Made by a program: the position numbers and the translations under genes. From contig JAUXOK010000026.1 in the NCBI GenBank assembly GCA_030682255.1, positions 96,567 through 160,566 of the forward strand: 64,000 nt of DNA, given 5' to 3'. Positions 2,536 to 31,406 of this stretch are shown here, one piece after another; position 1 is the first letter of the stretch, and each line of letters opens with the position of its first letter. The notes below the pieces were generated by a model. That model did no database searches, was not told the DNA's origin, and saw nothing but the letters and a program-made list of their open reading frames with translations. Source of the DNA: Bacteroidota bacterium. GTDB lineage: Bacteria; Bacteroidota; Bacteroidia; NS11-12g; UBA955.

Positions 2536-2850
2536 AAGGCTAACAGCCCAGCCCTGAAAGGGCGATATAACATAAGGCTGGGCATAGCTCCTCCGAAAGC
2601 CCTGAAAGGGCGACATAACCTAAGGATGGGCATAGCCCTTCCGAACCTAAGCATAGGCGCAGCCCTTCCGAACATAAGCCTAGGCATAACTCCTCCGAAA
2701 GCCCTGAAAGGGCGACATAACTTAAGGATAGGCGCAGCCCTTCCGAACTTAAGCATGGGCATAGCTCCTCCGAAAGCCCTGAAAGGGCGATATAACTTAA
2801 GGTTGGGCATAGCCCTTCCGAACCTAATTATGGGCATAGCCCTTCCGAAT
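2536..2850. repeat. REP/BIME-like cluster: 4 copies of the palindrome GCCCTGAAAGGGC alternating with GGGCATAGCCCTTCCGAA-type modules
   Basis: Palindromes at about 2551, 2599, 2701 and 2776, separated by recurring modules (CGAYATAACYTAAGGNTGGGCATAGCYCCTCCGAA). Lies immediately 5' of the RAYT gene. The two overlapping 137-aa ORFs here are repeat translations. Confidence 0.75.
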
Positions 2851-2862
2851 AAACTATAAAAC

Positions 2863-3315
2863 ATGGGTCAATCACTAGTTCAAAATTATATACATATCGT
2901 ATTCAGCACAAAGTACAGGCAGCCTCTCATACATCCACCTATAGAGCAAGAACTTCACGCTTATTTGGGCGGAATATGTAATCGTTTAGAATGTCAGTCT
3001 ATTATTGTAGGTGGCTATACAGACCATATTCACATCCTTTGCAAGCTCTCAAAAAAAATTGCTTTGATGAAATTGGTAGAAGAAGTAAAATCTCATTCAT
3101 CTAAATGGATAAAAACAAAAGGCGATGATTACCGCAATTTTTACTGGCAAGATGGTTATGGCGCTTTTTCGGTCAATCCTTCCGAAGTAGATGTCGTAAT
3201 TAATTACATAGCCAATCAACACCAACATCACAGCAAGAAAACCTTTAAAGGCGAATATATAGCATTTTTAGAAAAGTATCAGGTTGAATATGATGAACGC
3301 TATGTTTGGGACTGA
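2863..3315 (+). CDS. IS200/IS605-family Y1 (HUH) transposase of the REP-associated tyrosine transposase (RAYT / TnpA_REP) type
   Basis: 150 aa; HUH motif DHIHIL and a C-terminal tyrosine motif NYIANQ, the size expected for TnpA_REP. Flanked on both sides by REP-like palindromes. Confidence 0.8.
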   Translation: MGQSLVQNYIHIVFSTKYRQPLIHPPIEQELHAYLGGICNRLECQSIIVGGYTDHIHILCKLSKKIALMKLVEEVKSHSSKWIKTKGDDYRNFYWQDGYGAFSVNPSEVDVVINYIANQHQHHSKKTFKGEYIAFLEKYQVEYDERYVWD

Positions 3316-3339
3316 TACATAAAGTGGGTGAAGCCACCC

Positions 3340-3560
3340 CTATGTATCAGGGCGGGCTTCACCCATCCTTAGCATATATCGCCCCTATGGGGCTAATAGG
3401 CAACCAAGCCCTGAAAGGGCGATATATGCTAAGGATGGGCACAGCCCTTCCGATAGCCCTGAAAGGGCGATATAACACAACAACGCCCGTTCCAAAACAT
3501 CACATGAATGCACAAATGGTTCTATGCGCCCCTTGACCGAAGTCTCGGCTAAGCCGAGAC
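3340..3560. repeat. REP/BIME-like cluster 3' of the RAYT gene (2 GCCCTGAAAGGGC palindromes, one GCCCCTATGGGGC palindrome, one GTCTCGG-N5-CCGAGAC hairpin)
   Basis: Palindromes at about 3381, 3408 and 3456 with the same CGATATA...TAAGGATGGGCACAGCCCTTCCGA modules as the left cluster; extra hairpin at 3542-3560. The 76-aa ORF 3306..3536 is a repeat translation. Confidence 0.7.
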
Positions 3561-3701
3561 GGAAGGCATGGACTAGGCGCCCTAATTAATTTTAGATTGA
3601 AGATTTTAGATTGAAGATTTTCCTGATGGGTTATAAAATTATAAACTCAAAATAAGCATTGTTTAAAGCCATTTTTTTAGTTTCTTTTGAATATTGAAAT
3701 C

Positions 3702-27983: not shown

Positions 27984-30900
27984 ATGAAAATAATTCTACT
28001 ATATAGCACTTTAATTATTTGTTTGTTTACAAATGCACAAAGCACTCATGTGAATGGCCCTATTGGAAGTGGAGAATTCGGAAGATCCATTACAATTTTA
28101 AGCAACGGTAATTACGTTGTTACTGATCCACTTTTTGACGATGGAACTAAAGCTGATGTAGGAGCTGCTTATCTATATAATGGGTCAACACATGCGTTGA
28201 TAAGTACACTAAAAGGTAGCACAGCAAATGATCAAGTTGGTAGTCATGGTATAATTGTCCTTTCAAATGGCAATTATTTGATTCATAGTTTCAATTGGAA
28301 CAATGGGACTGCATTTTATGCAGGTGCCGTCACTTGGGGCAGTGCAACCACGGGCGTGAGCGGTGTGGTTGGCCCTAGCAACTCTTTGGTGGGTAGCAAG
28401 GCTAATGACAGAATTGGGAATAGCGGCATTTTAGTTCTCTCTAATGGCAATTATTTGGTTTTAAGTACTGTTTGGGATAATGGGGCTGCTATAGATGCAG
28501 GAGCTGTTACTTGGGGCAGTGATGTTTTGGGCGTAACCGGAGTAGTTAGTGAGAGTAATTCCTTGGTGGGTAGCACGTCAAGTGATCAAGTGGGAAGTGG
28601 AGGAGCAACTTTACTATCCAATGGCAATTATATAGTGAATAGTCCAACTTGGGACAATGGTTCTATATCGAATGCTGGTGCCGTTACGTGGGGAAGTGGT
28701 AACTCAGGCATCAGTGGCGCAGTTAGTGCTAGCAATTCTTTGGTGGGCAGCACAGCAGATAACATTGTTGGAAACGGTGGAATAACGATCCTTACTAACA
28801 GTAATTATGTAGTTCGCAGCTCAAGATGGGATAATGGAACTGCAAATGACGTAGGAGCCGTCACTTGGGGCAACGGCACTTCAGGTATCATCGGTGCGGT
28901 TAGTGCAAGTAATTCTCTGGTTGGTAGTACCGTTAATGACCAAGTGGGAAGTGGTTTTATAATCGCTCTTTCCAACGGCAATTATGTAGTAAATAGCCCC
29001 TTTTGGGACAATGGGGCAATAAGCAATGTCGGAGCCGTCACTTGGGGCAATGGAACTACCGGCATTAGTGGTTTAGTTAGTGCTAGCAACTCTCTAGTGG
29101 GAAGTTTGGCAAATGATCAAGTTGGAATTGTGATTTCAACGGCACTCTCCAATGGTAATTATGTGGTTCGCAGCTACAACTGGGATAATGGGGCCGCAAG
29201 CAATGCAGGAGCAGTTACATGGGGCAATGGCACTTCGGGTATTACAGGTGCTGTTAGTGCAAGTAATTCATTAGTGGGAAGCACGGCTAACGATCAAGTG
29301 GGCATAAATGGTATAACTGCCCTTTCAAATGGCAATTATGTAGTTATTAGCCGACAATGGGACAACGGTGCTGCAACAGACGCAGGCGCTGTCACATGGG
29401 GCAATGGCACTTCAGGCATAAGCGGTGTAATTAGCTCAAGCAATTCTTTGGTGGGTAGCTCGGCTAGTGACCAAGTTGGCATTAATGGTGTAGCGGTTCT
29501 CTCCAATAGTAATTATGTAGTTATCAGCCCCAATTGGAACAATGGAGCTGCAACGAACGCAGGTGCCGTCACGTGGGGCAATGGCACTTCAGGTATCAGC
29601 GGTGTGGTTAGTACTAGCAATTCACTAGTAGGTAGCACAACAAATAACCTAGTTGGCAGTAATGGGATAACCGCTCTATCTAATGGCAATTATTTAGTTA
29701 TGAGCCCTTCTTGGGACTATGGAACTTCAACTGACTTAGGAGCTGTTACATGGAGTAATGGCACCACGGGTATCAGCGGTGTAGTTAGTGCCAGCAATTC
29801 TTTGGTGGGTAGCTCTGCTCTTGATCAAGTGGGTGTTAATGGTATTTCATTGCTTTCCAATGGCAATTATGTGGTTCGCAGTAACAATTGGGACAATGGG
29901 GCTGTAACAAATGCAGGAGCCGTCACTTGGGGTAATAGCAATTCGGGAATTAGCGGTGCTGTTAGCGCTAGCAATTCTTTGGTGGGCAGTAAGGTTGGTG
30001 ACCAAGTTGGCAGTTCAGGTATAACAGTCCTCTCCAATGGCAACTATGTGGTAAATAGCTCAAATTGGGACAATGGGACCGCAATTCAGGCAGGAGCTGT
30101 GACATGGGGAAATGGCAACACAGGCATCAGCGGTGTGGTTAGTGTCAGCAACTCATTGGTAGGGGGAACCGCTAATAACTTCGTAGGAAATGGCAGTGTA
30201 ATTGCCCTTGCAAATGGCAATTACGTAGTTCGAAGTTTCAATTGGGACAATGGGGCTGTATCAGACGTAGGTGCTATCACTTGGGGCAGTGGTACTAAGG
30301 GTATTAGTGGGGTAGTTAGTGAGAGCAATTCTCTTATTGGAAGCACCGCTAACAATTTAGTGGGAAGCGCTAGCTTTAACATCTTCCCTAATGGTTATTT
30401 TGTGGTTCGCAATCCCAACTGGGACAATGGTACTGCAACGGACGCAGGAGCATTCAGTTTGGGCAATGAAAGCAAAGCATTGACAGGAGTCGTAAATTCC
30501 TGCAACAGTGTATTAGGAAATGCAGCTAATGGCGGCAGCAAAATGATTTCTGCTTTCAATACTGTTCATTCTTATCTTTTGGTAGGCAGACCTGGCGATA
30601 ATATCTTAACCATTTTCAATCCTATTGGTCAGCCTCTTGCTGTGCATTTGGATAGCACTTCAGCAAATATTGAAGGAAACACTGCTGTGCCCCTAGTAAA
30701 CAATGCTTGTCGTATTATTGCTTCCATACAAGCCAATGGGGTCAATCCTGTAATGGATTTGGTGCCGGCAAAAGTTTGGATAGAAACTAATCAAACAGAT
30801 AGTTTTGTTAAACGTCATTTTGAAATCACGCCTATAGTAAACAATAATAATGCAACAGCAAAAGTGATCTTATATTTCACCCAATCAGAATTTGATGATT

Positions 30901-31406
30901 TTAATGCTGTAAACACTAAAAAACTTCCTACTTCAGGCTCTGATGCTCAAGGAAAATCTAATTTGCGTATTATCAAAAGAGCGGGCAATAGCATTAATAA
31001 CACTGGTTTGCCAGGCTCTTATATTGGAGCTGTGAGCACCATCGATCCTCCTGATAGCAACATAGTTTTTAATTCGCAACTAAGCCGTTGGGAAGTGAGT
31101 TTTGACGTATTAGGATTTAGTGGCTTTTTTGTTAATACAGGAAACAAAGTTACTTCTTTAACAGAGCTCCCCAAAAATTTAAACAATGTAGAACTATTTC
31201 CTAATCCTACCAATGGAATCCTAAATATACTTAGCCATTATAACCAAGATTTTAAACTCAAATTAATGGATATTTCAGGCAAACTTTTAATTGAAAAAAC
31301 CTTTCAAGGAAATGGAACTCATCTATTAGATTTAAGTAATTTTTTGCCAGGCATCTACTTAGTTAAACTAAGTACCGGTGAAACCTTTAAGGTGATTAAA
31401 CAGTAA
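27984..31406 (+). CDS. 1140-aa repetitive cell-surface protein with a T9SS type-A sorting domain (Por_Secre_tail)
   Basis: Signal peptide MKIILLYSTLIICLFTNAQS; about 18-20 tandem copies of a roughly 61-aa unit (SNSLVGS.anDQVGsgGItaLSNGNYVV.Sp.WDNGaa.naGAVTWGNGTSGISGvVSa); C-terminus LFPNPTNGILNI...GIYLVKLSTGETFKVIKQ. Confidence 0.7.
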   Translation: MKIILLYSTLIICLFTNAQSTHVNGPIGSGEFGRSITILSNGNYVVTDPLFDDGTKADVGAAYLYNGSTHALISTLKGSTANDQVGSHGIIVLSNGNYLIHSFNWNNGTAFYAGAVTWGSATTGVSGVVGPSNSLVGSKANDRIGNSGILVLSNGNYLVLSTVWDNGAAIDAGAVTWGSDVLGVTGVVSESNSLVGSTSSDQVGSGGATLLSNGNYIVNSPTWDNGSISNAGAVTWGSGNSGISGAVSASNSLVGSTADNIVGNGGITILTNSNYVVRSSRWDNGTANDVGAVTWGNGTSGIIGAVSASNSLVGSTVNDQVGSGFIIALSNGNYVVNSPFWDNGAISNVGAVTWGNGTTGISGLVSASNSLVGSLANDQVGIVISTALSNGNYVVRSYNWDNGAASNAGAVTWGNGTSGITGAVSASNSLVGSTANDQVGINGITALSNGNYVVISRQWDNGAATDAGAVTWGNGTSGISGVISSSNSLVGSSASDQVGINGVAVLSNSNYVVISPNWNNGAATNAGAVTWGNGTSGISGVVSTSNSLVGSTTNNLVGSNGITALSNGNYLVMSPSWDYGTSTDLGAVTWSNGTTGISGVVSASNSLVGSSALDQVGVNGISLLSNGNYVVRSNNWDNGAVTNAGAVTWGNSNSGISGAVSASNSLVGSKVGDQVGSSGITVLSNGNYVVNSSNWDNGTAIQAGAVTWGNGNTGISGVVSVSNSLVGGTANNFVGNGSVIALANGNYVVRSFNWDNGAVSDVGAITWGSGTKGISGVVSESNSLIGSTANNLVGSASFNIFPNGYFVVRNPNWDNGTATDAGAFSLGNESKALTGVVNSCNSVLGNAANGGSKMISAFNTVHSYLLVGRPGDNILTIFNPIGQPLAVHLDSTSANIEGNTAVPLVNNACRIIASIQANGVNPVMDLVPAKVWIETNQTDSFVKRHFEITPIVNNNNATAKVILYFTQSEFDDFNAVNTKKLPTSGSDAQGKSNLRIIKRAGNSINNTGLPGSYIGAVSTIDPPDSNIVFNSQLSRWEVSFDVLGFSGFFVNTGNKVTSLTELPKNLNNVELFPNPTNGILNILSHYNQDFKLKLMDISGKLLIEKTFQGNGTHLLDLSNFLPGIYLVKLSTGETFKVIKQ
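28230..30480. repeat. intragenic tandem DNA repeat, period about 183 bp (encodes the roughly 61-aa protein repeats)
   Basis: Recurring tcttt(g)gtgggtagcac...ggcaattatgt...tgggacaatgg...gccgtcacttggggcaatggcacttcaggtatcagcggtg blocks across this interval. Confidence 0.7.

Follow-up and report, generated by a model that had tools for sequence, protein, structure and literature searches.

Y1 transposases have been divided into class 1 (signature Y---Q), class 2 (TnpA_REP, the transposases associated with repetitive extragenic palindromes (REPs), also called REP-associated tyrosine transposases or RAYTs; signature Y---NP) and class 3 (Quentin et al. 2018, PMC6006769). Within class 1, subclass 1.2 comprises proteins from Cyanobacteria and Bacteroidetes with a median length of 148 aa, the motifs DH[IV]H, WQ and Y---Q--HH, and a specific C-terminal domain of about 30 aa; it is described as lacking the properties of insertion sequences (ISs), with 1.7 copies per genome on average and 36% identity between copies, and is entered as 'REP: no' (PMC6006769). 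Bertels et al. 2017 (PMC5581495) described a 'RAYT-like IS200 Group 3' without duplicates or plasmid copies, whose flanking 16-mers occur about 21 times, and an IS200 group without IS behaviour was proposed there as a possible root of RAYT domestication. Judged from the descriptions, Group 3 is probably the same group as subclass 1.2. Here, we analysed a 64,000-nt stretch of DNA from a Bacteroidota bacterium (contig JAUXOK010000026.1, positions 96,567 to 160,566; hereafter the window), in which a gene for a 150-aa Y1 transposase stands between arrays of hairpin repeats. We consider it fairly probable that this is a REPtron-like locus on an enzyme of the IS200 lineage, that is, a single-copy gene for a Y1/HUH (histidine-hydrophobic-histidine) single-stranded DNA endonuclease/ligase accompanied by arrays of the enzyme's cognate DNA substrate. 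Such a system would work like a REPtron with its REP doublet hairpins (REPINs) at low copy number, not as a member of the RAYT clade, and its hairpin partner would be new for subclass 1.2.

An earlier note, made from the letters of this DNA alone, had called the gene a RAYT. Its description of a 150-aa open reading frame (ORF) with the HUH and tyrosine motifs of a Y1 transposase stands: the protein encoded at 2863-3315 (+ strand) matches Pfam Y1_Tnp (PF01797) with an E-value of 1.3e-27. The HUH motif is D54-H55-I56-H57 (HUH codons 3025-3033), the WQ motif is W95-Q96, and the catalytic tyrosine is Y115 in NYIANQ (codon 3205-3207), which gives the signature Y115-x3-Q119-x2-H122-H123 (YIANQHQHH). 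Residues H55, H57, Y115, Q119, H122 and H123 were invariant in 13 loci from at least five phyla and in 39 close homologues, and the C-terminal EYDERYVWD is kept from Bacteroidota to Verrucomicrobiota and Desulfobacterales. By homology and these invariant residues, the protein is predicted to be a catalytically intact Y1 enzyme. It passed the NCBIfam IS200/IS605 equivalog NF033573 (71.6 bits, cutoff 55) and failed the REP-associated tyrosine transposase model NF047646 (22 bits, cutoff 80). In a comparison with the sequences in PDB, the top match was IS608 TnpA (3e-8), and the E. coli TnpA_REP structure 4ER8 gave no match at E≤1. An AlphaFold2 model of the protein (pLDDT 83.5) had IS200-type transposases as its closest folds, with IS200 and IS608 TnpA as the nearest solved structures. 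Because of the Y---Q--HH rather than Y---NP signature, the NCBIfam scores and the fold comparison, we assign the protein, as far as sequence and predicted fold can tell, to the IS200 side of the Y1 enzymes and outside the RAYT clade. It shows every sequence feature described for subclass 1.2 (length, DHIH, WQ, Y---Q--HH and the C-terminal domain), as well as the low copy number and the absence of IS behaviour, judged from the window, the neighbour loci, synteny and a plasmid survey. The RAYT label thus survives for the flanking inverted cognate hairpins and falls for clade membership, also in view of the missing GT[AG]G foot described below. The family is large, with more than 8000 clusters at 90% identity among the scored candidates, of which the best 120 were 78-98% identical and spanned several Bacteroidota classes; 280 clusters at 50% identity had E<1e-30. 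Several of the 50%-identity representatives (P0123, P0125, P0127, P0128, P0130 and others) were about 290 aa long and matched the 150-aa Y1 protein twice in tandem; these may represent covalent fusions of the two subunits of an enzyme that is normally dimeric with trans active sites.

The DNA partner of this gene is a two-hairpin module, a structured element with fixed geometry. In order, it consists of an A, a first hairpin (H1; 5 bp with a GAA loop), a 12-nt linker that starts with G-N-N-A-T-A and ends with A-G, and a second hairpin (H2; 8 bp with a 3-nt loop). On its 5' side, H1 follows an A (CGAAA-, CCCA-, ACCAA- or CGATA-); the GT[AG]G foot of REPs was absent, with no GTAG or GTGG ahead of H1. 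In the window, H1 is the exact 13-mer GCCCTGAAAGGGC, present in six copies, all on the + strand: to the left of the gene at 2551, 2599, 2701 and 2776, and to its right at 3408 and 3456. By chance 0.04 copies would be expected, and none of 100 shuffles reached six. A seventh copy is the inverted variant GCCCCtatGGGGC at 3381-3393. These positions agree with the four left and two to three right repeats that had been reported for this DNA; the repeat itself had been called a perfect palindrome, which it is not, as two 5-bp inverted arms (GCCCT/AGGGC) enclose a GAA centre. No exact copy of GCCCTGAAAGGGC was found elsewhere in the 64-kb window. A covariance model of the whole two-hairpin module (R1), run unfiltered over the window, gave seven significant matches, all inside 2546-3495, with the next best at E = 0.52. 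Exact, mismatch and unfiltered R1 searches found no dispersed module copies in the other 62 kb, and the window thus holds the gene and its own arrays only.

The conservation of the module points to its structure. H2 keeps its shape while its sequence varies: in an alignment of 48 sequences (A1), 8/8 H2 pairs had changes on both sides (104 such cells), and the covariation score, informative only as pair-type diversity, was 0.475 against 0.125 in shuffles, was reached by 0 of 500 shuffles and collapsed in slid registers. H1 is the more constant part. Around protein-selected genes it was GCCCTgaaAGGGC in 85 of about 150 cases, and the others were mostly compensatory stem variants (GCCCC/GGGGC, GCTCT/AGAGC, ACCCT/AGGGT and GTCCT/AGGAC), most of which retain the GAA loop. 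The window's own module copies fold as single-stranded DNA into the model structure, and its right flank folds as single-stranded DNA into one long hairpin (-69.9 kcal/mol, z = -9). G.T outnumbered A.C mispairs by 25:3 in favour of the GAA-loop strand, and by 10:3 when the loop-closing pair is left out; the bias, which is mostly due to the loop-closing pair, is no more than suggestive of the GAA-loop strand being the active one.

The module also accompanies the gene in other organisms. In 80 metagenome loci that were chosen by protein alone (relatives 53-87% identical, many on short contigs), R1 gave 305 module matches, and 61 of the 80 loci carried a strict, oriented H1 within 400 nt of the gene. 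The density of H1 was 2.4 per kb beside the gene and 0.077 per kb at distances above 700 nt, an enrichment of about 32-fold. Upstream H1s were forward in 54 and reverse in 18 cases, downstream ones reverse in 51 and forward in 24, and the H1 closest to the gene preceded the ATG by 23-29 nt on one side and followed the stop codon by 7-10 nt on the other. Loci selected by the motif showed the same layout of gene and H1, and the Spirosoma orthologue (86% identity) has the same hairpin, AGCCCTGAAAGGGC, on both flanks and in both orientations. The window conforms to this pattern, with four forward H1s upstream of the gene and one inverted copy downstream. In IS608 and ISDra2, the left and right hairpins both lie on the same strand; the inverted bracketing found here is, unlike theirs, the arrangement of a REPtron. 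Many close homologues of the protein were found on contigs of about 0.9-1.3 kb. The sole other record of the exact protein, on a 5.9-kb Logan contig of SRR13727520 (L001) that equals the window from 2761 onward, begins within the left array, at 102 nt upstream of the gene. Evidently, the arrays break short-read assemblies.

The hairpin had been regarded as a new REP sequence in an AT-rich Bacteroidota genome. This view could not be upheld. A scan for AGCCCTGAAAGGGCRNNATA over one genome per GTDB species, which serves to show presence and context and not counts, listed at least 120 loci, and among the matches listed were Bacteroidota, Acidobacteriota, Planctomycetota, Verrucomicrobiota, Chlamydiae, Omnitrophota, Ignavibacteria, Chlorobiaceae, Thiotrichales, Hydrogenedentota and others. 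The identical hairpin thus recurs in many phyla (Bacteroidota, Acidobacteriota, Planctomycetota, Verrucomicrobiota, Chlamydiae, Ignavibacteria and others), and it overlaps the Rfam family RF01687. Its sequence was found in no paper in a literature search of incomplete coverage, which is no proof of novelty, and the linker variant of the window itself (…GAYATAACNTAAGG) had 0 matches in the JGI metagenomes. As for the related statement that such systems have been characterised mainly in Proteobacteria, Bacteroidetes TnpA_REP subclasses had previously been catalogued (PMC6006769).

Many copies of the module occur without the gene. About 100 of the at least 120 motif loci listed had no transposase homologue, and R1 gave 244 matches in 100 motif loci. 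These orphan copies are extragenic: of 211 H1 sites, only 14% lay within open frames that were 150 aa or longer, compared with 81% of background bases. Most commonly, an orphan is a palindrome of composite build, about 200 nt long and with the order H1-H2-H1...H1'-H2'-H1', and in one metagenome-assembled genome (MAG) the outer H1s form the exact ends of the orphan copies. In several assemblies, copies lie on more than one contig; a Blastocatellia MAG, for example, has them on contigs of 0.18, 3.2 and 5.7 Mb. In Persicobacter sp. JZB09, the gene (58% identity) lies on a 632-kb replicon, and the orphans consist of the gene's left flank, about 60 nt and the right flank; blastn placed them at 9, 4 and 1 sites on three replicons (about 14 in total), five of them within 11 kb of the gene. 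Overall, the orphan populations look small, in the tens, which agrees with the small repeat numbers of Bertels' IS200 Group 3, whereas classical REPs typically number hundreds. As for the genome-wide REP population that the earlier note had supposed, gene-less extragenic copies exist in relatives, one of which has them at about 14 places; the present genome showed none in the other 62 kb of the window. Some orphans retain remnants of the gene beside H1, namely its last codons in locus L011 (at 231, 5386 and 7542) and its first ~50 nt in locus L004 (at 6306 and 6991), as if they were derived from gene-carrying units by internal deletion.

Compared with the described systems, the locus shares with subclass 1.2 the length of the protein (150 aa against a median of 148 aa), the motifs, the C-terminal extension, the low copy number, Bacteroidetes hosts and the absence of IS-like behaviour. 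It differs from that subclass, for which no REP has been reported, in a cognate hairpin module that is found next to the gene at most loci as well as in orphan form, and in a host range much wider than Cyanobacteria and Bacteroidetes. The likeness to Bertels' Group 3 extends to the absence of duplicates and of plasmid copies and to the modest number of flanking repeats, the 16-mers occurring about 21 times there. With the REPtrons of RAYTs and REPs (E. coli YafM, 4ER8; the RAYTs of Pseudomonas fluorescens) it has in common a single-copy Y1 gene with its own inverted hairpin repeats, mosaic array flanks, and gene-less extragenic inverted doublets that fold into one long hairpin; it departs from them in the signature (no Y---NP), in the NF047646 score below the cutoff and in the missing GT[AG]G foot. 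The fold, the catalytic motifs, the class 1 Y---Q signature and the NCBIfam equivalog are those of the TnpA proteins of IS200/IS605 elements (IS608, ISDra2 and IS200), and the hairpin-guided single-strand chemistry is presumably the same. Unlike those elements, the present system has no tnpB in sight, no multi-copy identical elements, inverted hairpins with array flanks, an extra conserved C-terminal domain and only rare plasmid copies.

These features can be joined in a tentative mechanism, of which the intact Y1 enzyme would be the starting point. By analogy with IS608 TnpA and E. coli TnpA_REP, the enzyme would bind single-stranded H1 and its flank, for example on the lagging-strand template, and would cut and rejoin the DNA nearby. 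Gene-less elements composed of both flanks of the gene, typically inverted doublets that form one long hairpin, could then be moved in trans and be maintained as extragenic populations of small size. Such elements were observed in relatives, together with their extragenic position and the structure of their ends, and we infer their mobilisation. The arrays beside the gene would grow and shrink by local insertion and unequal recombination, and a tandem duplication was seen in a relative.

The best-surviving alternative, which we regard as rather unlikely, is that the locus is an ordinary autonomous IS of the IS200 family. The gene and two subterminal hairpin ends would then form one selfish unit, the orphans would be miniature inverted-repeat transposable elements (MITEs), and no domestication would have taken place. 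The score of 71.6 bits against a cutoff of 55 for the IS200/IS605 equivalog and the closest solved structures, IS200 and IS608 TnpA, are in keeping with this explanation, as are the MITE-like construction of orphans from both gene flanks, the gene-end remnants in L004 and L011, the low copy numbers of the short elements and the differing context of the gene between lineages. The orientation of the hairpins, opposite on the two sides and not on one strand as at the ends of IS608 and ISDra2, argues against it, and the flanks are multi-copy arrays instead of single ends. The behaviour of the gene points in the same direction. There is one copy in the window and one per protein-selected locus apart from local tandem duplicates, and in two loci that are 96% identical in nucleotides (L129 and L134) the gene occupies the same site with like neighbours and has diverged as they have (96.4% identity). 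Between Bacteroidota classes, the protein retains 80-90% identity, and copies of subclass 1.2 number 1.7 per genome on average with only 36% identity between them (PMC6006769). The gene is also essentially absent from plasmids and viral contigs: among 72,556 plasmids, 1,484 carried an ordinary IS200 TnpA with at most 31% identity, while a full-length match with at least 39% identity to the window protein was found in only two, both Bacteroidota replicons of about 0.6 Mb, and 2.9 M viral contigs contained 0 copies of the gene (and six motif matches). The earlier note had named two observations that would mark a plain IS, a palindrome restricted to this locus and a grouping of the protein with ordinary IS200 TnpA accompanied by TnpB; the hairpin recurs in many phyla, and no OrfB_IS605/TnpB domain was present among the neighbour genes examined. 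Taken together, the gene looks like one that is kept vertically with occasional relocation rather than an actively multiplying IS.

Several points nevertheless weigh against the interpretation as a REPtron-like locus. Tens rather than hundreds of copies would also fit an IS with few MITEs. No module lies away from the gene in these 64 kb, and the source genome may be without a dispersed population; the scan that listed at least 120 loci gives neither per-genome counts nor the co-occurrence of gene and module. The neighbourhood of the gene varies by lineage, which shows that the gene-carrying unit is not immobile over long times, and tandem duplicates point the same way. The sequences of A1 were chosen for pairing, so that the percentage paired holds by construction and only the diversity of pair types is informative. 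Lastly, binding, the cleavage site and the active strand are inferences for subclass 1.2. The tandem duplicates are exemplified by positions 4001-5430 of L129, where the gene and its arrays are duplicated with a period of 721 nt while L134 has a single copy. In another locus, L186, module matches recur at a period of 955 nt. Such periods suggest that flanking arrays have recombined unequally.

A further explanation, that the modules are structured RNA genes or cis-elements (the Acido-Lenti-1 small RNA (sRNA), hairpins of untranslated regions, or terminators) whose adjacency to the Y1 gene reflects regulation or coincidence, appears quite improbable to us. It draws on Rfam: read on the opposite strand, the module has the architecture of RF01687 (8-bp and 5-bp hairpins and a conserved linker of about 12 nt, …CUA…UAU…), a family known as Acido-Lenti-1, which Weinberg et al. 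2010 (PMC2864571) listed for Acidobacteria and Lentisphaerae and took to be probably an sRNA. Twenty related copies, from loci of Acidobacteriota, Planctomycetota, Victivallales, Kiritimatiellae and Bacteroidaceae, reached the RF01687 gathering score of 37 (37.1-46.4 bits), and the window copies scored 16.5-21.8 bits, below that threshold. Moreover, the covariation fits RNA equally well, and the elements are extragenic. As for other Rfam families, the miRNA and rRNA matches in the flank were all below threshold and reflect the long hairpin, and over the whole window Rfam gave one tRNA-Arg only. An RNA is harder to reconcile with modules in both orientations, typically as inverted doublets, and with tandem arrays on both sides of, and enriched about 32-fold beside, one enzyme gene whose relatives act on DNA hairpins. 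In addition, the orphans reproduce both gene flanks, and the bias of G.T over A.C described above, whether or not the loop-closing pair is counted, points to the other strand than that of the Rfam orientation.

Rfam thus records an sRNA of unknown function in two phyla, whereas we see a DNA repeat that is linked to a transposase gene in many phyla. No paper linking Acido-Lenti-1 to a Y1 transposase was found in the literature search, whose coverage was incomplete, and a 2026 preprint on Tannerella still describes what Acido-Lenti-1 does as unknown. A bolder proposal, to which we give somewhat less than an even chance, is that Acido-Lenti-1 is not primarily an RNA gene but the single-stranded DNA recognition module of subclass 1.2. 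The pair would then be a second partnership of the REPIN/RAYT type, this one from the IS200 side, which either arose independently of classical RAYTs or is a surviving intermediate. H1 (GCCCT-GAA-AGGGC with A...GNNATA flanks) is near-unchanged across at least eight phyla and with proteins down to about 50% identity, which under this proposal would mean that the contact between protein and DNA is unusually constrained and that the pair probably has a role at the level of the host. If the REPtron-like interpretation is right, Acido-Lenti-1, whose function has been open since 2010, would gain a concrete explanation as a transposase substrate, and RF01687 matches near genes should not by default be annotated as regulatory sRNAs.

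Finally, it is hardly credible that the left array codes for a repeat protein (ORF 2446-2859, + strand, 137 aa, with units such as LGIALPNLS): although this ORF is open through the entire array in the frame of the transposase gene and the repeat periods of 27, 48, 75 and 102 nt are all multiples of 3, the other strand is no less open (2451-2864, 137 aa), which repeats that lack stops and have a period divisible by 3 would lead one to expect, no Pfam family matches either ORF, module spacing is 71, 76 or about 67 nt in other genomes, and base pairs rather than codons are conserved, so that this reading is effectively refuted.

Should the interpretation as a REPtron-like locus on an IS200-lineage enzyme be correct, subclass 1.2 would gain an entry where the reference Y1 classification has 'REP: no', and a defined oligonucleotide substrate (H1 with its flanks, with or without H2) would be available for the biochemistry of this group. 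The origin of RAYT domestication would also become approachable, through the co-phylogeny of gene and module and the dynamics of small REPIN populations.

The layout of the arrays around the gene is as follows. The left array, for which Tandem Repeats Finder (TRF) gave the periods of 27, 48, 75 and 102 nt, is made of 48-nt full modules (A) and 27-nt units with the second hairpin only (B) in a regular mix, A A B B A B A B, which is what the 'mosaic modules' of the earlier note amount to. The first module (2546-2593, +; R1 32.6 bits, E 2e-6) has an exact H1, GCCCTgaaAGGGC, at 2551-2563, a 12-nt linker and a degenerate H2. The second (2594-2645, +; 59.6 bits, E 8e-13) has H1 at 2599-2611, the linker GACATAACCTAA and an H2 of the form GGATGGGC-ATA-GCCCTTCC (8 bp with one T.T mismatch), and its minimum free energy fold as single-stranded DNA equals the model structure. 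It is followed by two 27-nt units with H2 and without H1 (2646-2699, +), which are supported by the TRF period of 27 and by GGCATAGCCCTTCCGAA-like matches at 2656 and 2683. The third module (2696-2747, +; 52.2 bits; H1 at 2701-2713) precedes another 27-nt H2-only unit (2748-2774, +). Then comes the fourth module (2771-2822, +; 54.7 bits), whose H1 at 2776-2788 is the upstream H1 closest to the gene, 87 nt before the ATG, and a 27-nt H2-only unit (2823-2849, +) is the final one ahead of the gene; these last two short units were again recognised by the TRF period of 27 and a GGCATAGCCCTTCCGAA-like match.

On the right, a short hairpin directly after the stop codon (3316-3346, +), in which TACATA...TATGTA encloses GGGTGaagcCACCC, was evident both as an inverted repeat and in the single-stranded DNA fold. 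Next to it lies the inverted module (3347-3398, - strand; 34.4 bits in R1 on that strand), which contains the variant H1 at 3381-3393. Together with the following module (3403-3454, +; 58.7 bits and fold; H1 at 3408-3420 and H2 GGATGGGC-ACA-GCCCTTCC), it forms an inverted doublet, with 41-nt arms at 3354-3394 and 3407-3447 that are 83% complementary. A partial module (3455-3495, +; 24 bits, E 2.6e-4) with H1 at 3456-3468 and a linker, and no clear H2, follows. The earlier note had also mentioned further hairpins; the GC-rich one at 3525-3565 (GTCTCGGCT-A-AGCCGAGAC inside a longer imperfect stem) is real, though unique in the window and outside the module family. Beyond it, a 14-nt direct repeat, ATTTTAGATTGAAG, occurs in 2.4 copies at 3589-3621 and does not belong to the module family either.

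The neighbours of the gene differ between loci. They are PolX/PHP in the window and AraC/TonB in L129 and L134; in the Spirosoma locus (CP041360; L002, 3001-3453) and in L014 (1854-2306), the gene and its arrays are placed inside a type I restriction-modification operon, with hsdS on one side and hsdM on the other, and in L133 (3160-3783) the gene stands beside DndB, PIN and HipA. The last three positions may reflect a preference for defence or toxin-antitoxin islands, or chance. In the window, twelve tandem copies of a 21-nt AT-rich unit (1660-1912) lie beside a gene of the Cro/C1-type helix-turn-helix family (HTH_26; 1210-1626, - strand), and these repeats, about 600 nt upstream of the hairpin array, have an iteron-like layout. 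Farther away, the region 27984-31406 encodes an 1140-aa protein with 14 DUF5650 repeats and a C-terminal sorting domain of the type IX secretion system, which confirms a Bacteroidota host; its gene has a GC content of 0.43-0.48 against about 0.33 for the window and a strong positive GC skew.

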